A DNA stretch of 64,000 nucleotides from a virus, in UHGV virus genome UHGV-1351569. One strand, given 5' to 3'. The notes under the pieces were generated by a model. That model searched no databases, was not told the origin of the DNA, and worked only from the letters and a program-made list of their open reading frames with translations. The position numbers were made by a program, and so were the translations under genes. Positions 2,889-17,995 of the stretch are shown piece after piece; the stretch's first letter is position 1; each line of letters opens with the position of its first letter.

Positions 2889-3364
2889 TTGTAAAATATA
2901 TCAAGGGCGATATTGTCGCCCTATTTCTTCAAGGTAATATTATTGCGCACGGGTGTAACTGTTTTCATACAATGGGCAGTGGTGTAGCTGGTCAATTAGC
3001 AAGAGCCTATCCCAAAATTTTAGAAATAGATAAGACCACAACTGAATATGGTTCGCGTGAAAAACTCGGTGATATGTCTATTGTTTTTAAACATAAACCT
3101 AATGGTTTTGGCATATGTTATAACTTGTATACGCAATACGAACCAGGTCCTAATCTTGATTATGGTGCTTTAGTAAACTGCATGATAGAATTAAATCTAC
3201 AGGCAGAAACCCTTTTGTTTAAACCAGTAATTTACATTCCACGCATAGGTTGTGGTATTGCTGGCGGTGATTGGGATAAGGTTTCTAAATTAATCGACAT
3301 GTTTACTCCTGATATTGATTTAATAGTGGTGGATTATGAAAGTACATTACCCACATCCGTTTGA
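2885..3364 (+). CDS. macro-domain-like protein (putative ADP-ribose binding/processing)
   Basis: N-terminal GDIVALF...GNIIAHGCNCF...MGSGVAGQLARAYP resembles the macro-domain GDIT...NAAN...GGGV signature. Confidence 0.55.
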   Translation: MIVKYIKGDIVALFLQGNIIAHGCNCFHTMGSGVAGQLARAYPKILEIDKTTTEYGSREKLGDMSIVFKHKPNGFGICYNLYTQYEPGPNLDYGALVNCMIELNLQAETLLFKPVIYIPRIGCGIAGGDWDKVSKLIDMFTPDIDLIVVDYESTLPTSV

Positions 3365-3548
3365 TCCTAAAAACAAAGCAGAAATTATTCGTCAATGGGA
3401 ACGCATTTGCCGTACTAAATGCCCAATTAATAGTTCACATGATGTAAATAAAGACTATATTGGAACATTCGTTGAATATACCTTTATTGATAAGAAAGGT
3501 CGTAAACAGCACGTAGAAGAATATTGCTTAAAGGTTACATGGTTATGA
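3336..3548 (+). CDS. hypothetical protein, 70 aa
   Basis: ORF from track. Confidence 0.45.
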   Translation: MKVHYPHPFDPKNKAEIIRQWERICRTKCPINSSHDVNKDYIGTFVEYTFIDKKGRKQHVEEYCLKVTWL

Positions 3549-4739: not shown

Positions 4740-4952
4740 ATGCTACAATTAACTGAAAAGCAACTTCGCAATCTTACTGTTCTTCAATTAGATGAAATTC
4801 GTAGGGAAGTTGGAAATATCATTTCAGCTTTGCGTCGAGAAGTATCGCTCAACCAATCTCCGGCAGACTATACTAGATTGCGAAATTTTGAAAAATACCT
4901 TGATAAAGTTAAGGCCGTGCATCGGCATAAAGTAAATACAGGACAAAAATGA
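4740..4952 (+). CDS. hypothetical protein, 70 aa
   Basis: ORF with ggggtatat RBS. Confidence 0.5.
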
Positions 4953-4964
4953 TAGGAGGCCTTT

Positions 4965-5258
4965 ATGGCCTTAAAAGCAACGGCACTTTTTGCCATGCTA
5001 GGATTGTCATTTGTTTTATCTCCATCAATTGAAGCGAATGTCGATCCTCATTTTGATAAATTTATGGAATCTGGTATTAGGCACGTTTATACACTTTTTG
5101 AAAATAAAAGCGTAGAATCGTCTGAACAATTCTATAGTTTTATGAGAACGACCTATAAAAATGACCCGTGCTCTTCAGATTTTGAATGTATAGAGCGAGG
5201 CGCGGAGATGGCACAATCATACGCTAGAATTATGAACATTAAATTGGAGACTGAATGA
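4965..5258 (+). CDS. rI: RI lysis-inhibition regulator (antiholin)
   Basis: 97 aa; N-terminal signal/SAR-like segment; near-identical to recalled T4 RI. Confidence 0.85.
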   Translation: MALKATALFAMLGLSFVLSPSIEANVDPHFDKFMESGIRHVYTLFENKSVESSEQFYSFMRTTYKNDPCSSDFECIERGAEMAQSYARIMNIKLETE

Positions 5259-5641
5259 AATTCAGCGACTTTTCACAAAGTGGAAAACCTTCAAAGGCAG
5301 ATGAATACTTAGGTTTATTAATGGCTGCACAAGCTTATTTTCATTCTGCGCATTTTGAAACTAAAAGTTATGCTAGACACAAAGCATACGATTTTATTTT
5401 CTCTGAGTTACCAGATTTGATTGATAAATTTGGTGAGCAATATTTGGGGTATTCTGGTAGAAAATACACACCTTCAATTCCAGATGCCAGTAAACTTCCT
5501 ACCGACACAATTAAAATGATTGATCGCATACTAGACCAATCTAACAGCATTTACAAAGAAATGCCTCCAGCCATTCAAAGCACGATAGATGATATTACTG
5601 GAATGTTTTACCAGAGTAAATATCTTCTTTCCCTCGAATAA
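5255..5641 (+). CDS. hypothetical protein, 128 aa
   Basis: ATGA overlap with rI stop. Confidence 0.6.
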
Positions 5642-5644
5642 CAT

Positions 5645-5668
5645 TAGTCTCCTTCGGGAGACTTTTTT
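5645..5668 (+). terminator. rho-independent terminator (UUCG tetraloop hairpin + U tract)
   Basis: gtctcc-ttcg-ggagac then tttttt. Confidence 0.6.
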
Positions 5669-5677
5669 CATTTTACC

Positions 5678-5707
5678 GGTTTACTTTCCATTTGAGCTGT
5701 GATACTA
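5678..5707 (+). promoter_or_regulatory. T4-type early promoter
   Basis: GTTTAC, ~17-bp spacer, TAnnnT -10; directly follows the terminator. Confidence 0.5.
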
Positions 5708-5736
5708 TACAACCATCAGATAAAGAGGAGAACATC

Positions 5737-5925
5737 ATGAAAATTGAAGCACTTAATCAAGAAGGAAATATCTACGTCATCATTAATGGTGATTTTTTCG
5801 TCAACATGGATGAAGTTACCAGTGAAGAACTTGAAAAACTTCTTAAGAAACGCTATGATATGTGTGATGAAGCTGCAACTCATATGGCGTGTGCAATATT
5901 CTCTCTTTCATATGTGGTGGAATAA
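5737..5925 (+). CDS. hypothetical protein, 62 aa
   Basis: ATG at 5737 preceded by aagaggagaa RBS (track start 5692 lacks RBS). Confidence 0.5.
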
Positions 5926-6655: not shown

Positions 6656-7033
6656 GTGAGTGAGTCGAAGAGAATCAATATGAAACGATTGGTATTAGAA
6701 GTTAGTCCACTTTTTGGTGAATTGGCTATAGAAAAAGTAAATAACATGTATCGTTTGACGCAAGAAGACGATATGCTGTATTTTACGCCTAGTGAAATCA
6801 TTCATTTAACCCAAATTGAATATCCTTATACTGATAAAATAGTAAGCATCAATGATGAGCACAAAATTCATTTTTATTCTTCATGCCCAGGATTTAATAT
6901 TAAAAGTGAGTCAATGTGTTTATCAGTTATCCATTGGGATAGTTTTATAGATAAGATTAAATATTTTTATTATTCTAATGAAAGAAAACATAGTTTAAAA
7001 TGGTTTAAAAAATTGCAATGCTATTATTACTAA
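6656..7033 (+). CDS. hypothetical protein, 125 aa (GTG start)
   Basis: aaggag RBS 9 nt upstream of GTG; see finding on downstream start-less open frame. Confidence 0.5.
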   Translation: MSESKRINMKRLVLEVSPLFGELAIEKVNNMYRLTQEDDMLYFTPSEIIHLTQIEYPYTDKIVSINDEHKIHFYSSCPGFNIKSESMCLSVIHWDSFIDKIKYFYYSNERKHSLKWFKKLQCYYY

Positions 7034-7220
7034 CGCTTGCAATCAGAACGATGAAACTCTTTTAAATGTATCAAAATGTTATGAAGATGGAGATGTCTTA
7101 ACTATTCGTCAAATTGATGATTTTCGATCGCATATTGTCACATTTACCAAAGACGAAGCTATTGCGCTAAAGACTTATCTTGATTCTGTCATTCCAACTA
7201 TGATTTCAAAGTGAGGAAAT

Positions 7221-9296: not shown

Positions 9297-9330
9297 ACAA
9301 CTATCAACTGATACGGATTTGGAGAATAAA

Positions 9331-10300
9331 ATGAAAACTGTAACTATCAATAAGGGTATCTACTTCGGTAAAGAAATCTCTGGAACTTTTGAGCTCTTAG
9401 GCGAATGGTTCCCAGATAATGCTCCGGTAGATGCACAAGGAGATGGTAAAGTTTTTGTTGAAATTGACGGTAAACGTCGCGGTGTTTGGGTTTACAAATC
9501 AGATATTTCATATGATGGTGTAAAAGTTGAAGAAGTTAAAGAATCGTATGAAGATATGAAAACCCGCATTAATAAAAGATTTAATGTTATGGGAATGATG
9601 ACGAATGGTATTATTAATGGAAATATTCGTTCATTGATTATCTCTGGTGCAGCAGGTATTGGTAAAACGTATTCTTTAGATAAAGCTTTAAATAAAGCAA
9701 ATGATATTGGATACATTGAATATAAAAGCATTAATGGTAAAATCTCTGGTATTGGTCTTTATGAGCAGCTTTGGAATAATCGTGAAGAGAATTCTGTCCT
9801 TTTGATTGATGATGTGGATGTTTTCTCTGATATGGACATTCTTAATCTTCTAAAAGCTGCTCTGGACACTGGAGAGACCCGTAAAGTCTGCTGGAGCACG
9901 GCGTCTTCTTACTTAGAAGAAAAAGGCATTGAGCGTGAGTTTGAATTTAAAGGAACGATTGTTTTTATCACAAACGTTGACATTGACCGCGAATTAGACC
10001 GTGGTACTAAACTTGCCCCCACACTTACAAGCATTAGTGTCCCGCTCGGTTTATTTGGATTTAGGCGTTCACACTAATGAAGAAATTATGGTCAGGGTTG
10101 AAGATGTTATTCTTTCAACTGACATGATGCAAAAGCGCGGTCTTTCTGATGAAGAAACTTATAAAGCATTATCATGGATGAAAGTTAATGTTAATCGTTT
10201 ACGCAATGTTTCACTGCGTACTGCTCTTTATCTTGCTGACTTTATTATGACCGACAAAAACGGTTGGGAAGAAATTGCTGAGGTTACTCTTCTGAAATAA
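9331..10300 (+). pseudogene. AAA+ ATPase gene interrupted by a frameshift (N-part 9331-10077, C-part frame from 10001)
   Basis: Walker A GAAGIGKT, Walker B VLLIDDVD, sensor-1 TIVFITNVD in first frame; lid-like C-domain continues in the next frame; frames meet at a C5 run 10016-10020. Confidence 0.6.
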
Positions 10301-10764: not shown

Positions 10765-11292
10765 ATGAACGCTAAAGATATTTTCAACTTGGTAAATTAC
10801 AACGATGGTAAATTTAAATCTGAAGCACAAAGCAAGTTCTTTAACGACATCTCAATCGGAGGTGAAATTACTGTTGATGGAGGACAAATTTACAAATCCC
10901 GTTGGAATTGGATCGTTATTATCGATGAGATTGGTATTGTAGAAATTTACAAGAATACGAATAAAAATCGTACATTACACTGGTCTCGTGATACTAATGA
11001 ACAGTACAAAAAGGATAAAGCATCTAAATTATCTCGTGTAACTCAAGAAGATATTGAGTTCATCAAGAAAGATATTTTAATGTATGATAACTTAATTGCT
11101 GAAGAGCAAGCTGTTATTGATAAATTTGACGAGATTAAAGCTTCTCGTGAAATTCCTGATTTTATGAAAGAATCAGTAAATGAACGATACTCTCTCATTT
11201 CAGAGCGTATTGAAACTTACAAAAAGCAAAGAGCTGAACGCCAAAATACTCTTCGGAAGTTTGAAGAACGGTTAAAGACGGTACTCGCATAA
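10765..11292 (+). CDS. hypothetical protein, 175 aa
   Basis: ORF downstream of conserved leader. Confidence 0.6.
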   Translation: MNAKDIFNLVNYNDGKFKSEAQSKFFNDISIGGEITVDGGQIYKSRWNWIVIIDEIGIVEIYKNTNKNRTLHWSRDTNEQYKKDKASKLSRVTQEDIEFIKKDILMYDNLIAEEQAVIDKFDEIKASREIPDFMKESVNERYSLISERIETYKKQRAERQNTLRKFEERLKTVLA

Positions 11293-11347
11293 CCGCTTTA
11301 TACCAAGGATGGTATAATGGTTCTAAGCCCTTTTAATTGAGATTGTT

Positions 11348-11752
11348 ATGAAACAGTTGATAATTAAAAGATTGAATTTATTGATATGTTGTTTATGTAT
11401 AGTAATTGCATATGGTTATTACGCAATTAATGATTATATGCATTATAAAGATTATGATGTTACTGTAGTTAATACCTTTACAGGAACTCAAGGAAAGGGG
11501 TCTAGTTTATCGTTTATTGCTGTATATGAACTCAAAGACGGTTATAGATTTAGCGAATATATTTCACCAGAGATGTATTCATCAATAGAAAAAGGCGATA
11601 ATATTACTGTAAGTTTACGTCCTTTCGACGTAAAACAGACATTGTTTGATAATATTGTTTGGTTCTTTGGAATGGTATTAGTTCAATCTGTATGCGGTGC
11701 TTATATAGTCTTTTCCATCATATTCTGCATATTTAGTAAAATTGAAAATTGA
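11348..11752 (+). CDS. hypothetical membrane protein, 134 aa
   Basis: N- and C-terminal hydrophobic helices. Confidence 0.55.
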   Translation: MKQLIIKRLNLLICCLCIVIAYGYYAINDYMHYKDYDVTVVNTFTGTQGKGSSLSFIAVYELKDGYRFSEYISPEMYSSIEKGDNITVSLRPFDVKQTLFDNIVWFFGMVLVQSVCGAYIVFSIIFCIFSKIEN

Positions 11753-12651
11753 GTGAGGAAAATATGTCAGTAGTAATTAATAATGTCAATGCAGTAATTA
11801 AATCTTTAGTTAATAAAAAATTGAATGAATGGACTGTACTTCGTCGTGGAGAGCCAGATAAATTTTTTCATAGATTTAACCCAACTTTGGATTTGAATGT
11901 TATTGACAGAGATGTTCATGCTGAAATTTTAGATAAATTTAAAGTTGATATTGGGTTTGGATTAGATAAACATTTACAACGAACAAACGGGTCTGGAATG
12001 GGTTTATCTAATCGCATCATGAAAGCCCTTAATAAAATTGGAGCGTTGTCTCGTATTAATGCGAGTGAAATCCTTCGTAATTATAATAAAGGATATGACC
12101 TTTATGGTCGACTAATGCCAAAATTATCATTCGATCAAATGATTGCGGATTTGTGGGAAAATCAACGACGATTATTAGCATTGGGAGCTCGATTAGCTAA
12201 AGGTCTAGATAAACAAATGATTTTTAAGACCAATAATACAGAAGACCTTAAATGCTTTAAATTTAGTATTCGTGGCGATGATTATTACATCAGAACTCGC
12301 TCCACAGATTATGTCAATATGGGCCATCATCTCTGTTTAGCTTTTGAAGTTTTAAAAGAAGCTGGAACATTAGAATATACGTCTGGTACTAAATGCCCGA
12401 TTGGTTCAAATTGTATTTTGATTTATCGCCCGGATGAATCCAGTTCAACTAAATTGCCTACGAAACCTGTACCAGTTCGTAGTAATGAAAAACATTCTGA
12501 ACAAATTGATTATTTTAATAAGCAAATTGAAGAGCTGAATATTTCTATTCAACAGTATGACGATGAAATTTTCAGACTATCTGGATTGAGTAGTAAAGCT
12601 AAATCTGAGCGTGAAAAGTTAATTAAAATTGTCGATTTACTTAAATCTTAA
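11749..12651 (+). CDS. hypothetical protein, 300 aa, C-terminal coiled-coil tail (member 1 of 4-gene tandem family)
   Basis: ATGA overlap upstream; C-terminal heptad-like helix. Confidence 0.6.
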   Translation: MSEENMSVVINNVNAVIKSLVNKKLNEWTVLRRGEPDKFFHRFNPTLDLNVIDRDVHAEILDKFKVDIGFGLDKHLQRTNGSGMGLSNRIMKALNKIGALSRINASEILRNYNKGYDLYGRLMPKLSFDQMIADLWENQRRLLALGARLAKGLDKQMIFKTNNTEDLKCFKFSIRGDDYYIRTRSTDYVNMGHHLCLAFEVLKEAGTLEYTSGTKCPIGSNCILIYRPDESSSTKLPTKPVPVRSNEKHSEQIDYFNKQIEELNISIQQYDDEIFRLSGLSSKAKSEREKLIKIVDLLKS

Positions 12652-12659
12652 GGAACACC

Positions 12660-13688
12660 ATGAAAACTCGTTCTCAAATTGAAGATATGGTTCGTAACGC
12701 CAGCTATACTCGTGATGTTATGACATTTTTGTGCCAAAATAATTTAGACCCTGATAAAGTTAATCGTGTTATTCATCACTTTAAGTATACGAATAGCAGT
12801 GAATGGGTGCGTAATTTTAGTAAAGCGGGGTATATTACACAAATGACTGCTCGTGAGCAGCTCACCGATTTCTGTAAAACTATTGATTATAAAAATCCTC
12901 TATTTGTTCAAGGCGTTGGTCAAAGTAAGGTCGATTTATCAACAGGATTTTTTAATCCAAATCATTATCGTATTGAATGGAGATTTATTGCTCTATTCCG
13001 TAAACAATTAAAGCAAATTTTGTCTACTGCTAGTCGATTAAAAGGTTCTGATATTAACTTAAAGAATCTGAAATTTGATGGTTATACTCTTCAGATGGAA
13101 GTAAGACCATTAAAAGAAAATAACAGAACTGCACGAATTAGCTTTAAACCTAATACAAAAAATTCTCTTTCAATTTGCGAATGCCTTAAATCGCAGTTGA
13201 CAGAAGCATTTAAGTATATGGATGTTGTTGCTGCTGTTCAGTCTAAGATTTCACAACATTTCGAACGATTTAAATTAGACACAACAACATATGAACTTGA
13301 TATGATCGTTTCATTTAAATATGAATTTTTGAGAAAGGACGAAGTTACACAAGAGAAAAAGCAAGAAGTGCAAGATAACTTAAATTTAAATTTATCCAAT
13401 TACTCATCAAACGATCCTAAATTTTGGATGTATAGTTCAGGTAATAAGGATGCATGGAAATTCAATAAAGTGAATTTTCTTCCTGTTGAAAATCCGAGTC
13501 TTAAACCTGTTGAAAAATGGCATGCAGATGCGATTGAGAAGTCTATCAAGGCAGTAGATGATGAACTCGTTAAAGCAACTAATGAAGTGCTAGAAGCTGA
13601 AAAGATGCTAGAAAAAGCTCAAGAAAAAGTCAAAAATCTCACGAAGCAACGTTCTAAACTGAACAATGCACTAAATGCACTGAACTAG
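12660..13688 (+). CDS. hypothetical protein, 342 aa, C-terminal coiled-coil tail (family member 2)
   Basis: N-terminus MKTRSQIEDM; C-terminal KAQEKVKNLTKQRSKLNNALNALN. Confidence 0.6.
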   Translation: MKTRSQIEDMVRNASYTRDVMTFLCQNNLDPDKVNRVIHHFKYTNSSEWVRNFSKAGYITQMTAREQLTDFCKTIDYKNPLFVQGVGQSKVDLSTGFFNPNHYRIEWRFIALFRKQLKQILSTASRLKGSDINLKNLKFDGYTLQMEVRPLKENNRTARISFKPNTKNSLSICECLKSQLTEAFKYMDVVAAVQSKISQHFERFKLDTTTYELDMIVSFKYEFLRKDEVTQEKKQEVQDNLNLNLSNYSSNDPKFWMYSSGNKDAWKFNKVNFLPVENPSLKPVEKWHADAIEKSIKAVDDELVKATNEVLEAEKMLEKAQEKVKNLTKQRSKLNNALNALN

Positions 13689-13718
13689 TTTACTTTACCA
13701 CAGGGATGTGGTATAATG
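13689..13718 (+). promoter_or_regulatory. T4-type early promoter
   Basis: GTTTAC, 18-bp spacer, TGgTATAAT. Confidence 0.5.
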
Positions 13719-13745
13719 TTCTTACTTTCTACTGAGGAGATTAAT

Positions 13746-14747
13746 ATGACTCGTAACGAATATATCAAATCATTCAATAGCGTTATTGATGATAAAGCTA
13801 TACCGATGTTTGGCCAAAATAGCGTTCTTTCTATTATCAATCAATGGCTCAATAGTGTTGATGCAAGTATTGTTTCTTCTACTAAATTTATTCATGAAAT
13901 TCGTAAAATTTCTAGCCGTGTAGATAAAGATGTTATCAAGAAAACCTTTAAAGAGTCTCGTCTTCTTTCATATTTGGTTAATCGGGATATTCTTGGTAAT
14001 TTTGGGAAAGAAATTAAACGAACCAAAGATGTAGTAGGATATAATTGGTTCGGTGATGTTAATTCTTATCATCTTAATAATAAAGAAGACCCTGAGAATA
14101 TTTTTACTCGTCGTTGGATTAGTAATTTCAGACTTTTCAAAGGACAGATTCTAAAATCAGCTTCTAAATTATGTTATGGCGATTATCGTCAAATTCATCC
14201 TTTGGCTTCTGATATGATTATCATAAAAGAATATGAACTTGATAAAAATAAAGTATCTATTTTTGTGAATTATGGATTTTTTACACCAGAAACTAACCAA
14301 AAGAATATTAATAAATTTTTCTCAATTGCTAGCACTATAACTCGTCAATTAGAGACCGCATTACTTTGTATGGAAACAGTAGAAAATATTCATACATATC
14401 CTTTTAAGAATATATGCGGATGGGAAGGATATAAAATTGTAATTAGTCTTCGTGAAGTGAAATGTGCTTATTCACCTACTGATAAAGAAATTTATCAACA
14501 AAAATGTGAGGAAATTGTGAATACTCCTAAAGAAGAAACTACCCTTGAGGAACTAATGGAATGTCTTGATGATTCACCTGAACCGGTAGAAATTCGTCCA
14601 GAAGTTATTGCATTAGAAAAAGCTTATAAAGAAGTTCTAGAAATTTCTAATAAAGCGCAGAAAGAATATGAGCAGGCTAAAAGGATTTGGGAAGAATCTG
14701 TTAATCGTCTTGATCGTCTGGAACAAGCTTTACAGTTAATTAAGTAA
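13746..14747 (+). CDS. hypothetical protein, 333 aa, C-terminal coiled-coil tail (family member 3)
   Basis: ATG at 13746 after gaggag RBS; N-terminus MTRNEYIKSF. Confidence 0.6.
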   Translation: MTRNEYIKSFNSVIDDKAIPMFGQNSVLSIINQWLNSVDASIVSSTKFIHEIRKISSRVDKDVIKKTFKESRLLSYLVNRDILGNFGKEIKRTKDVVGYNWFGDVNSYHLNNKEDPENIFTRRWISNFRLFKGQILKSASKLCYGDYRQIHPLASDMIIIKEYELDKNKVSIFVNYGFFTPETNQKNINKFFSIASTITRQLETALLCMETVENIHTYPFKNICGWEGYKIVISLREVKCAYSPTDKEIYQQKCEEIVNTPKEETTLEELMECLDDSPEPVEIRPEVIALEKAYKEVLEISNKAQKEYEQAKRIWEESVNRLDRLEQALQLIK

Positions 14748-14799
14748 TTTAAAGCCAAGGATGGCTCGGAGTATAAACTATTAACCAAGTGAGAAGAAC

Positions 14800-15726
14800 A
14801 TGAAAACTCGTAAACATTATATTGATTATTTTGACAGTCTTATTACTAAACATCGTAATTATCAGATAGGACACAGAGCAGTAATCAATAATATTCTTCG
14901 TGATTTTTTAGACTATATTGGATGGGAAAACCATATTTGTAAAGATACACAAAATGCGTATTCACATTCTCTTGGTTCTTTGCTCGAGTGGTTCAAACGT
15001 TCCCGATTACTATCTTCTGTGATAGCTGTTAATAATGTTAAAAAATTTATGTATCCAAGCTACATTGAGACTAATGTATCAAATGCTAGTGTTGTTACAT
15101 TTAATATTATTAACGACGTGAAAAGAACTTATTTAGAAGAATGGTTTTCTAAAGATAGTAAAGAAAAATTTGCCAGTGAGTTTTCACACGAATTTAATAA
15201 TAATGTGAATATGCTTTTTAAGCATTCTCGTAGACTGTTTTGTCATGGCGATGACCGTACTATTAATGTAAATGTAAAAGATTGGGTTACGGCTAAATTC
15301 ATTCCATCATCACAGAATGGACCATTTGAATTGTCAATTATTGTTTGTGCTCCGCATGAAATATATAAAAATATTCCATATATGAAACCATGTGAAGCTA
15401 ATAAACATAATAAAACGATTCGTTCTTTGACTTATAATCTTCGTACGTTATTGTCTAAAATGGACGTAGTTGAATCCTTTGATGATAATACGAATTATGG
15501 TCTTTCACTATTTGAAACTAAAGTTGTTATTAAGTTAAAGGACCCTAGTAAATTTAAACCTACGCCAAAGCCCAATCGTGGGAATGATACTATGAAAGAA
15601 GAACGCGAATATCTCAGTGCTCGTTTGATTGAAGTTGAAAAACAGATTGAAGAGCATACTAAAGTTATTAAGGCTTTAACTGCCAAAGCAAATGGTTTAC
15701 GTGATGCTATTGAGGTACTGAAATGA
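14800..15726 (+). CDS. hypothetical protein, 308 aa, C-terminal coiled-coil tail (family member 4)
   Basis: N-terminus MKTRKHYIDYF; C-terminal helix [31 protein letters not shown]. Confidence 0.6.
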   Translation: MKTRKHYIDYFDSLITKHRNYQIGHRAVINNILRDFLDYIGWENHICKDTQNAYSHSLGSLLEWFKRSRLLSSVIAVNNVKKFMYPSYIETNVSNASVVTFNIINDVKRTYLEEWFSKDSKEKFASEFSHEFNNNVNMLFKHSRRLFCHGDDRTINVNVKDWVTAKFIPSSQNGPFELSIIVCAPHEIYKNIPYMKPCEANKHNKTIRSLTYNLRTLLSKMDVVESFDDNTNYGLSLFETKVVIKLKDPSKFKPTPKPNRGNDTMKEEREYLSARLIEVEKQIEEHTKVIKALTAKANGLRDAIEVLK

Positions 15727-16040
15727 AAAAGCGTTTATTAGAAGATATTGCAGCTTCAAGTAATTCCAGTCTAATTAAAATTATTATGGCTGGTGAAGAA
15801 GACGATCTGGAAATGCGTGGAAAGATTCATGGTTGTGACGATTTAGATTTTAAACCTCCAGCTTGGGATGCCATTATGGCTATGGTTGAACGTCGCGAAA
15901 GGGCTTCTAAAAGCGTTCCTAATTGTCCTGAATGCGGTACTGAACAGGTTCAATTAGTCCATTGGCAGACTAGTAATCTTCGTTATAAATGCCGTCATTG
16001 CAAACACCGATTTAACCGAGAAGAAAATGACCAAGCGTAA
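15723..16040 (+). CDS. small zinc-ribbon protein, 105 aa
   Basis: CPECGTEQ...CRHCKHRF (CxxC...CxxC). Confidence 0.55.
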
Positions 16041-16254
16041 AGAATATATGGAGATTGCTGAAAAGGCAGTACGTGAATTAGCAATAGCATATTATAATGA
16101 ACATGGTAAATTTCCTGATAGATACAGCGTGCTTAAATCTGCTTTAACTCGTTCATATAAAAATATGCTATCAGAAGTAAGTGATATTATTACAAACATA
16201 AAGAACAAACGGGCCAAAGTCTTGATTACGACGAGACTTTTAAACAAGTACTAG
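16027..16254 (+). CDS. hypothetical protein, 75 aa
   Basis: ORF from track. Confidence 0.5.
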
Positions 16255-16269
16255 GAATTAAGGAATAAT

Positions 16270-16533
16270 ATGTTTAAAGTATATGGTTATGATAGCAACA
16301 TCCATAAATGTGTGTATTGCGATAATGCAAAACGTCTTTTGACTGTGAAGAAACAGCCGTTTGAATTTATCAATATTATGCCGGAAAAAGGTGTTTTTGA
16401 TGATGAGAAAATCGCTGAGCTTCTGACGAAACTAGGTCGTGATACTCAAATTGGTTTGACAATGCCACAAGTATTTGCTCCTGATGGAAGTCATATTGGC
16501 GGATTTGACCAATTGCGGGAATACTTTAAATGA
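16270..16533 (+). CDS. nrdC: phage thioredoxin/glutaredoxin NrdC
   Basis: 87 aa; CVYC active site; matches recalled T4 NrdC. Confidence 0.9.
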   Translation: MFKVYGYDSNIHKCVYCDNAKRLLTVKKQPFEFINIMPEKGVFDDEKIAELLTKLGRDTQIGLTMPQVFAPDGSHIGGFDQLREYFK

Positions 16534-16745
16534 TGCTCGAAGGAACTGATTATATCCATGACTACCGCGGAAGCGCGGTATATGTAGGTGATGAGGTTGC
16601 AGTTTATTACGGGTATGGAACTTTGATGACAGCAAAGGTTATTCAAATTAAAAATAACCGTGCTAAACTCGAAGTTTATTATTCTAATGGTGAAAAGTCT
16701 ATTTCTAAGTGGAAATACGGCGATTGCATGGTCAAACTGGGGTAA
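16530..16745 (+). CDS. hypothetical protein, 71 aa
   Basis: ATGA overlap with nrdC stop. Confidence 0.5.
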   Translation: MMLEGTDYIHDYRGSAVYVGDEVAVYYGYGTLMTAKVIQIKNNRAKLEVYYSNGEKSISKWKYGDCMVKLG

Positions 16746-16747
16746 AT

Positions 16748-16918
16748 ATGATTTACGATATTAATGTAGCAAGAGCTCCGTCAATGGTTACTATTCCAGC
16801 TGAAGAATTAGATCGTCTTCAGAAAATTGAAGAGCTTCTTTGGGAAATTGAATCTGATTTGCCATCAGGACTAGAATCCTGGATTGATTATGAAGAACTT
16901 AATAAATTGCGAAATTAA
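16748..16918 (+). CDS. hypothetical protein, 56 aa
   Basis: ATG at 16748 just after upstream stop. Confidence 0.4.
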   Translation: MIYDINVARAPSMVTIPAEELDRLQKIEELLWEIESDLPSGLESWIDYEELNKLRN

Positions 16919-16928
16919 TTGGTGAAAA

Positions 16929-17249
16929 ATGAATATTGAAAATAAATTAGATGTTGATGCAGTTCTGAGCGAAATCATCGAAGACCATGATGCATTTTCA
17001 GAAAATTATGATTTCGATTTTTCGGATTATCTTAAACCTGTCGAAATAGAAGACTGGGTGCAAGATGGTAAATGCCAATATCGTCAGTGTGTTTATTTTA
17101 GTCCAAAACATAACGTTCATGTGTCTGTAAATGAATCTCGTTCAGGTTCTTACCATTCTGACTGGTATTATGCAGTTCCGACTGTTGAACTAGTCGAGCC
17201 CCGTGAACGTGTAGTAACTCAGACAGTACGAGAATGGATTACGCTATAA
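16929..17249 (+). CDS. hypothetical acidic protein, 106 aa
   Basis: ORF from track. Confidence 0.5.
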   Translation: MNIENKLDVDAVLSEIIEDHDAFSENYDFDFSDYLKPVEIEDWVQDGKCQYRQCVYFSPKHNVHVSVNESRSGSYHSDWYYAVPTVELVEPRERVVTQTVREWITL

Positions 17250-17354: not shown

Positions 17355-17819
17355 TTGATATGGAGATGGGACATGATTACAGTAGATAAGTGGTTTAGAA
17401 TTAATCGTGCTGATAAAGGGCTGTGTAATTACTGGCCGGAACTTAGTGCAGGTACTGTCTTTAAAGTTCGTGAACTTGCAAAAGAATGCGAAGATGATAT
17501 AGAACCTGATACTGGAATTATTGAAATTGAACTTTCTGATGGAAAGATTATTAACATCTATGATAAGCCAATTACATATTGGTGCTTGTGGAATACCGAA
17601 TCAGTAGAAAATGGCGAAATTGAAGAAGTTGTAGAACGAGTTGATCAAGCTATTCATAAACCTAAAGCCGCTTTTCAAGGTGAACGCATTTCATATGCAT
17701 TATCTAAATCGGCGTTGAAAAAAGATATTGATGATTACGAAGGAAATTTAATGCAAGCCGCGGCAGAATATATTGAATGGCTTGAAACTCAAATTTCTTT
17801 TTCTGACCGAGCGTTTTAA
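17355..17819 (+). CDS. hypothetical protein, 154 aa (at the position where T4 carries pin)
   Basis: ORF from track; assignment to pin is positional only. Confidence 0.5.
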   Translation: MIWRWDMITVDKWFRINRADKGLCNYWPELSAGTVFKVRELAKECEDDIEPDTGIIEIELSDGKIINIYDKPITYWCLWNTESVENGEIEEVVERVDQAIHKPKAAFQGERISYALSKSALKKDIDDYEGNLMQAAAEYIEWLETQISFSDRAF

Positions 17820-17995
17820 TGAAAACCGAATTAATTTATACTGAAAAGTTAAATGGTGGTAAGGTTTGGAAACTTTTTATTAAAGGAAGTCCTACTGACC
17901 CTAATATGACCACTTGTATAGGAACTTATTCTCGTCCTACTAAAAAGATGATTCGACAATATAAGCGATTGCATCGAATGTTTTACAATACTTGA
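17819..17995 (+). CDS. hypothetical basic small protein, 58 aa (below track cutoff)
   Basis: Hand-translated; aATG overlaps upstream stop. Confidence 0.4.
   Translation: MKTELIYTEKLNGGKVWKLFIKGSPTDPNMTTCIGTYSRPTKKMIRQYKRLHRMFYNT

Follow-up and report, generated by a model that had tools for sequence, protein, structure and literature searches.

Phage T4 carries in its nrdC region a described anti-defence gene, nrdC.5. We analysed the ortholog of this gene together with three adjacent genes in the window, i.e. the whole 64,000-nucleotide (nt) stretch of the virus genome UHGV-1351569, a segment of a Tequatrovirus (T4-like) genome. In previous work, an evolved T4 clone with deletions lost infection of Escherichia coli ECOR17, which was restored by deletion of dsr1 in the host, and T4 nrdC.5 expressed alone restored plating on MG1655 with Dsr1, a SIR2-type defence protein of ECOR17 (Srikant et al., eLife 2022, PMC9391042). 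The sensor of Dsr1 is homologous to that of Avs7 and recognises the major capsid protein, and a large group of defence proteins carries a TPR sensor of this Dsr1/Avs7 type joined to an NADase, nuclease, kinase or STAND module (2026 preprint, PMC12803255). So far, NrdC.5 has been an isolated anti-Dsr1 gene without known relatives. Other genes of the region counter different systems: according to the HIDEN-SEQ study (10.1101/2025.11.20.689424), T4 nrdC.1 inhibits Septu, and bas37_0203, identified here as nrdC.8 ortholog solely by its place in the gene order and a length of 528 nt, inhibits Druantia III. In addition, gp49.2 inhibits the OLD defence nuclease, as reported in 2026 for the T6 ortholog (PMC13096335). 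Here we find that the window's orthologs of nrdC.5, nrdC.4 and nrdC.3 are paralogous, judged by profile-profile homology of their head regions, and that the nrdC.6 ortholog probably belongs to the same superfamily.

Four adjacent orthologs of T4 nrdC genes

Comparison with the annotated T4 reference, combined with BLASTP, identified the four array genes, termed A to D in 5' to 3' order, as follows:

11764-12651, plus strand: gene A, nrdC.6 ortholog, 295 amino acids (aa), 96.5% identity to T4 NrdC.6 over 259 aa
12660-13688, plus strand: gene B, nrdC.5 ortholog, 342 aa, 95% identity to T4 NrdC.5
13746-14747, plus strand: gene C, nrdC.4 ortholog, 333 aa, 98% identity to T4 NrdC.4
14800-15726, plus strand: gene D, nrdC.3 ortholog, 308 aa, 95% identity to T4 NrdC.3

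The 3978-base stretch of the array matches 503 phage records, the closest being RB18 (97%). Gene B lies between nrdC.6 and nrdC.4, as in T4, and the stop codon of gene D overlaps the start of nrdC.2. The four adjacent, co-oriented open reading frames (ORFs) that an earlier note had placed at 11749-15726 are indeed there, but the first encodes 295 aa rather than 300. The TTG at 11749 is an overcall; from the sequence, gene A most likely starts at the ATG at 11764, which has a GAGG ribosome-binding site upstream and agrees with the T4 annotation. The start of gene C at 13746, giving the 333-aa form, is preceded by GAGGAG.

In the T4 reference NC_000866, nrdC.6 (12067-12894) encodes 275 aa; a frameshift alters the C-terminus, and the heptad tail described below is missing. 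The T4 re-sequenced for HIDEN-SEQ has nrdC.6 listed as 891 nt, full length, in that study (10.1101/2025.11.20.689424). The shortened reference form probably goes back to a variant strain or to an early sequencing error.

Relatedness of the four proteins

The four proteins are distributed over three separate families. Gene A gives a full-length profile match to phrog_2257 (E = 2.2e-152), and all 105 of its homologs are labelled PF26899. Gene B matches the entire Pfam model DUF7235 (PF23882; model positions 1-307 of 307) with 422 bits and E = 1.8e-126, compared to a gathering score of 30 bits, and falls in phrog_2351. Genes C and D are both full-length members of phrog_1435 (PF26897), with E = 3.6e-169 and E = 3.2e-100, respectively. 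Of the four, the Pfam scan recognises B alone; it returned no DUF7235 match in A or C, and in D one of 11 bits restricted to the tail (E = 0.24). A, C and D lie outside the Pfam family DUF7235; C and D, and probably A, are members only of the wider superfamily set out below, being remote from B, with 16-24% identity or a relationship visible only by profile or structure.

Homologs were gathered for A, B and C, and for D from phage genomes, and the resulting families were compared profile against profile with hhalign. Pairwise BLASTP among the four proteins detects C-D only, at 24% identity over 270 aa, and hhalign joins this pair at 98% probability (E = 1e-13, clean families). The family of B aligns with the merged C+D profile over about 180 head columns at 94% (E = 1e-7), rising to 95% (E = 2e-8) after addition of the divergent B-types of Mosigvirus, Dhakavirus and Jiaodavirus.

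With the clean families, hhalign gives no significant match between A and any one family. Compared with the B family or with merged B+C+D, A reaches a score of about 35, with P of 3e-4 to 5e-4. The aligned segment is a helix pair ending in LLALGARLAKGxD, with the counterpart ILSTASRLKGSD in B and ILKSASKLCYGD in C. The score of 35.1 between A and the B family compares with 14.5 ± 2.2 in 59 column shuffles, none of them as high, and with 17.2 ± 3.3 (maximum 28.1) in 59 shuffles of seven-column blocks, where again 0 of 59 reach it; in each of four controls the A score tops all 59 shuffles. Moreover, A is the top non-member match of the B+C+D profile among the 145 ORFs of the window, in which the same search found no further paralog elsewhere. 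A 96% match between A and C was rejected: it is present only with the Mosigvirus nrdC.6-type protein SA35RD_4925 in the C alignment and is gone with clean families. When the C+D head profile was run exhaustively with HMMER against 1.84 billion protein representatives, it gave only nine clusters, all listed matches aligning to the C/D head, and none of the nine is a relative from outside the C/D family.

Altogether, the all-against-all comparison by BLASTP, hhalign and shuffle controls reveals similarity beyond chance, and the earlier note's view of the array as four diverged paralogs is borne out, with strong support for nrdC.4/nrdC.3, good support for nrdC.5 and weaker, though consistent, support for nrdC.6. 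Confident homology of any of the four to unrelated characterised proteins was not found. The membership of A in the superfamily is probable because it also has the same order of secondary-structure elements as B and a Foldseek neighbour in common with it, as described in the next section.

Overall architecture and predicted structure

The four proteins have a common layout: a helical region at the N-terminus is followed by a strand-strand-helix-strand-strand unit, then by a linker rich in proline and finally by a heptad helix of 45-55 aa. AlphaFold2 models of A and B, with a predicted local distance difference test (pLDDT) score of 79 and 68, respectively, agree with the previously noted division into a globular part and a helical tail, as the elements follow each other in the same order:

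N-terminal helical region: A aa 3-150; B aa 4-128
Strand-strand-helix-strand-strand unit: A aa 167-221; B aa 144-219
Low-confidence linker: A aa 227-241; B aa 225-283
C-terminal helix: A aa 242-271 and 277-294; B aa 286-341, a single helix

Foldseek search against BFVD with the B model retrieved as top matches uncharacterised proteins of Erwinia phage Cronus, Klebsiella phage Mineola and Serratia phage CBH8 (326-374 aa), in addition to a 222-aa protein of Aeromonas phage 65.2. The A model retrieved its own family and similar proteins from Enterobacter, Pectobacterium, Acinetobacter, Citrobacter and Klebsiella phages. One protein of Klebsiella phage Mineola, A0A2Z4QAR2, is matched by both models, by B with E = 1e-6 and by A with E = 2e-3, a probability of 1.0 and a template modelling (TM) score of 0.44. 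We take it to be Mineola gene 080 from the equal length of 326 aa. Gene 080 sits directly upstream of an nrdC.2-like gene, the position of the array in the window, and matches the B profile with E = 5e-8. Structurally similar proteins of about 220-375 aa are thus present in several other T4-like genera, in the same genomic position in the one that was checked.

No PDB structure or curated family matches any of the heads significantly. The only matches from NCBIfam, from a sequence search of the PDB and from Pfam scans of the individual members were to DUF7235 and generic coiled-coil models. The head is an uncharacterised fold, since the A and B models match only uncharacterised phage proteins. 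In keeping with the earlier impression that a recognisable catalytic motif is absent, none was found, nor any enzyme domain in the Pfam, NCBIfam and PDB searches. The similar N-terminus seen in three of the proteins (M-K-T-R or M-T-R, followed by Y/F-I) is common to the nrdC.5, nrdC.4 and nrdC.3 families and not to nrdC.6; residues T3 and R4 are invariant in an alignment of 26 sequences.

The C-terminal heptad tail

Each of the four proteins ends in a heptad tail, encoded on the plus strand as follows:

~12460-12648, plus strand: linker and heptad tail of A, aa 233-295, following a body of aa 1-232
~13515-13682, plus strand: tail helix of B, aa 286-341
14577-14744, plus strand: tail of C, ~aa 278-333
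15562-15723, plus strand: tail of D, ~aa 255-308

In the four tails, 79-93% of the a/d positions are hydrophobic, compared to 51-61% in shuffled sequences (P ≤ 0.001), and power at a period of 3.5 residues is raised in all four (P ≤ 0.002). The coiled-coil check of the suspected heptad-like tail thus found the periodicity in all four proteins. There are weak matches to leucine-zipper and SNARE models, and the four tails have in common the terminal pattern L-x-x-A/V-L/I-x-x-L-K.

Within each of the four families the tail is better conserved than the body. Among divergent orthologs, body and tail identities are 42 and 67% for A, 37 and 62% for B, 46 and 59% for C, and 57 and 68% for D, which indicates purifying selection on the tails. 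The upstream protein NrdC.8, which also has a heptad C-terminus, was considered as a fifth family member and rejected, as its hhalign comparison with all four families is not significant.

Divergence, copy number and turnover

The four families are confined to enterobacterial T4-like phages, with intact ORFs in 742 (A), 582 (B), 554 (C) and 654 (D) of 50,697 records. Between genera, the array genes are at 24-55% identity or absent; in the same comparison nrdC.11, nrdC.10, nrdC.8, nrdC and gp49 retain 70-89% identity in Mosigvirus and Dhakavirus. Copy number varies likewise, from four in Tequatrovirus to three in Mosigvirus SA35RD (A-, B- and D-type) and in Dhakavirus MX01 (A-, B- and C-type), and one in Jiaodavirus Mineola. 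ACG-C40 also has a single copy, its deletion running from early nrdC.5 to the nrdC.3 tail.

Two natural deletion products illustrate such losses. ACG-C40 retains at 6802-7213 only the first 72 codons of nrdC.5 and the tail end of nrdC.3, and the metagenomic phage contig P0056 encodes an in-frame nrdC.5/nrdC.3 fusion protein. Recombination repeats were not found within 11300-16100 of the window; DNA repeats in this interval are short matches at chance level, except for the start ATGAAAACTCGT common to genes B and D.

NrdC.3 occurs within Tequatrovirus as two allele classes, of >90% and ~60% protein identity. In many genomes the DNA similarity to the window ends inside nrdC.3, at about query position 3313-3541, and this stop within the gene suggests mosaic replacement of the remainder. 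The nrdC.6-type protein of Mosigvirus SA35RD (4925-5920) matches the A profile only at the N-terminal helices (30-152) and the tail (260-331); as its middle differs, an exchange of the central unit within the family is suggested.

Proposed function of the array

Based on these data, we propose that the array probably encodes a diversifying family of early-expressed, non-enzymatic defence inhibitors, which are tandem paralogs confined to T4-like phages (Straboviridae). The four genes would be diverged duplicates, each combining a fast-evolving head, a disordered proline-rich linker and a more slowly changing amphipathic heptad helix. Gene B, from its 95% identity and synteny with T4 NrdC.5, is inferred to share the anti-Dsr1 function, and A, C and D are candidates for immune evasion because they are paralogs of this known inhibitor. 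The array proteins may act as stoichiometric inhibitors of host anti-phage defence proteins. The head would provide the target-recognition surface, which diversifies in step with changing hosts through duplication, loss and the replacement of alleles. The tail would drive coiled-coil self-association or attach the protein to a single conserved partner. The other three proteins, NrdC.6, NrdC.4 and NrdC.3, might then act against further defence proteins or alleles, perhaps relatives of Dsr1.

Early expression is suggested at least for gene C by a putative promoter in front of it:

13688-13717, plus strand: early-type promoter GTTTAC-N14-GTGGTATAAT, between genes B and C, read from the sequence

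A consensus scan, using the early-promoter consensus from the annotation of phage SA35RD, gave 10 of 12 matches plus the TG, so that the element is predicted to be a textbook T4 early-type promoter. T4 nrdC.5 itself is described as an early gene.

A more specific form of the proposal is unlikely: a modular inhibitor scaffold, in which the conserved tail docks every paralog onto a common partner or bundles the paralogs, and each of the rapidly exchanged heads blinds a different defence protein with a Dsr1/Avs7-type sensor. If true, the array would be a phage panel matched to a host sensor family, which would account for both the two alleles of NrdC.3 and the subsets kept by each genus.

Several points weigh against the proposed family of inhibitors. 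The link of A to the other three, at 30-40% hhalign probability, is below the usual confidence of that method, and the exhaustive search with the C+D head profile retrieved no member of the A or B families among the 1.84 billion representatives. The model of B is of moderate confidence (pLDDT 68), and in the model of A the tail is a hairpin folded back rather than one helix. Tail-only profiles are not significantly similar between families (P 0.004-0.15), and the common tail is therefore an architectural and not a sequence statement; it could be acquired or convergent. On the functional side, evidence concerns one of the four genes only, which might act by direct binding or otherwise, and the main text of the HIDEN-SEQ study does not highlight nrdC.3-nrdC.6 (bas37_0198-0201) as conditionally essential in the clinical isolates tested; for bas37_0201 a borderline log2 fold change of -0.73 (p 0.057) is on record there (10.1101/2025.11.20.689424).

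Alternative explanations

The alternative that survives best, though rather unlikely, is that NrdC.5 alone is an anti-defence protein and that the other three serve host takeover in other ways, or persist through linkage as redundant or decaying duplicates. No functional study of nrdC.6, nrdC.4 or nrdC.3 was found in the literature, and according to the HIDEN-SEQ study (10.1101/2025.11.20.689424) transposon mapping in T4 and Bas37 scores nrdC.3-nrdC.6 as all non-essential, both of which fit this alternative. The natural losses, i.e. most of nrdC.5 through nrdC.3 in ACG-C40 and the nrdC.5/nrdC.3 fusion of P0056, fit it as well, but loss and replacement are also expected of accessory anti-defence genes. 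The frameshifted tail of the reference T4 NrdC.6 could be taken as a sign of decay; against this, the re-sequenced T4 has the full-length gene of 891 nt. Each of the four genes is intact in hundreds of phage records, and the conserved tails indicate purifying selection, which both speak against this alternative.

An improbable alternative is that the four proteins join via their heptad tails into one hetero-oligomeric complex, a single multi-subunit device. The genes are adjacent and co-oriented, and the tails are alike in length and terminal pattern, as expected for such a complex. However, the copy number ranges from 1 to 4 with subsets that differ between genera, and plasmid-borne NrdC.5 alone is sufficient against Dsr1, although the phage may still have carried the paralogs. 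Moreover, tails from different families are no more alike than unrelated coiled coils are, which favours homotypic pairing over a hetero-complex.

Least probable of all is that the array comprises more than one family, with nrdC.6, and perhaps nrdC.5 too, unrelated to nrdC.4/nrdC.3 and similar in appearance through generic helical C-termini and AT-rich composition: BLASTP detecting C-D alone, the lack of significance of A against any single family, three separate Pfam families and an exhaustive profile search that crossed no family border are in its favour, but it has to face the match of B to the C+D profile, the score of A above all shuffles and its top rank as non-member among 145 ORFs, the matching secondary-structure order of A and B and their common structural neighbour A0A2Z4QAR2 of Mineola.

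Returning to the proposed family of defence inhibitors, the paralogy yields three concrete candidates in the best-studied phage. A division of labour between a variable head for the target and a conserved tail for assembly becomes testable, and the diverged sequences are a natural series for mapping the Dsr1-contacting surface.

Neighbouring genes and the anti-defence island

Upstream of the array lie nrdC.8 and nrdC.7, and downstream of it nrdC.2, nrdC.1 and nrdC, with nrdC.2 as the conserved downstream anchor in all genera examined. The neighbours in the window are:

10765-11292, plus strand: nrdC.8 ortholog, 175 aa, 98% identity to T4 NrdC.8, heptad helix at the C-terminus
11348-11752, plus strand: nrdC.7 ortholog, 91% identity to T4 NrdC.7, predicted membrane protein according to the T4 annotation
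15723-16040, plus strand: nrdC.2 ortholog, zinc-ribbon protein
16027-16254, plus strand: nrdC.1 ortholog, 85% identity to T4 NrdC.1 over 88% of the length
16929-17249: Gp49.2 ortholog, 106-aa ORF, 97% identity to T4 Gp49.2

Together, nrdC.1, nrdC.5, nrdC.8 and gp49.2 make this block an anti-defence island, and the array strengthens the case for such an island in the nrdC-nrdC.11 block of T-even phages. The suspicion that counter-defence functions reside at this locus is supported by T4 nrdC.5 countering Dsr1 and by the inhibition of Septu, Druantia III and OLD by nrdC.1, bas37_0203 and gp49.2. By contrast, the statement that the array could not be assigned to any described system does not hold, as an anti-defence function has been described for one of its genes, and all four have long been annotated as ORFs in T4.

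Several neighbours depart from T4. The window's NrdC.1 has 75 aa compared to 80 aa in T4, and the C-termini differ. The nrdC.10 region (9319-10300) is split into overlapping ORFs at 9319-10077 and 10001-10300, which align to residues 1-235 and 228-316 of T4 NrdC.10, respectively; this frameshift relative to T4 and the Mosigvirus ortholog could mean a pseudogene, an error in sequencing or a genuine variant. At the position of T4 gene 49.3 (16530-16918) there are two small ORFs of 71 and 69 aa without a match to T4 49.3, a layout resembling that of phages pSe_SNUABM_01 and ACG-C40, whose annotations call the second ORF an antitoxin. The region of pin, the Lon protease inhibitor gene (17355-17995), shows an apparent rearrangement: the ORF at 17355-17819 is 89% identical to T4 Pin residues 1-146, and in the ORF at 17819-17995 the last 18 residues resemble the Pin C-terminus.

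Comparison with known systems

Compared to the known genes, B resembles T4 NrdC.5 in its 95% identity, its position and its full-length DUF7235 match, whereas A, C and D are remote paralogs without a DUF7235 match. The latter have full-length matches of their own, C and D to PF26897/phrog_1435 and A to PF26899/phrog_2257. In the databases, the families PF26897 and PF26899 are separate and without function; here they are joined with DUF7235 as one proposed superfamily. Similar to the array genes, NrdC.1, NrdC.8/Bas37_0203 and Gp49.2 are non-essential, lie in the same island and are without known domains, but they show no sequence relationship to the four and are far shorter, at 75-175 aa. Among described proteins, the closest analogue in kind is DSAD1, a phage protein acting against a defence-associated sirtuin. 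It is likened here by description only and differs in its target, DSR2 instead of Dsr1, and in the phage group it comes from; a coiled-coil tail is not reported in the abstracts describing it (PMC10973363, PMC11087589, PMC11290490). Altogether, the gene annotations and the function of NrdC.5 were already known, and the family relationship and the three predicted anti-defence candidates are new. The array is not a new kind of system; it extends known biology, from a single anti-Dsr1 gene to a family of its relatives.

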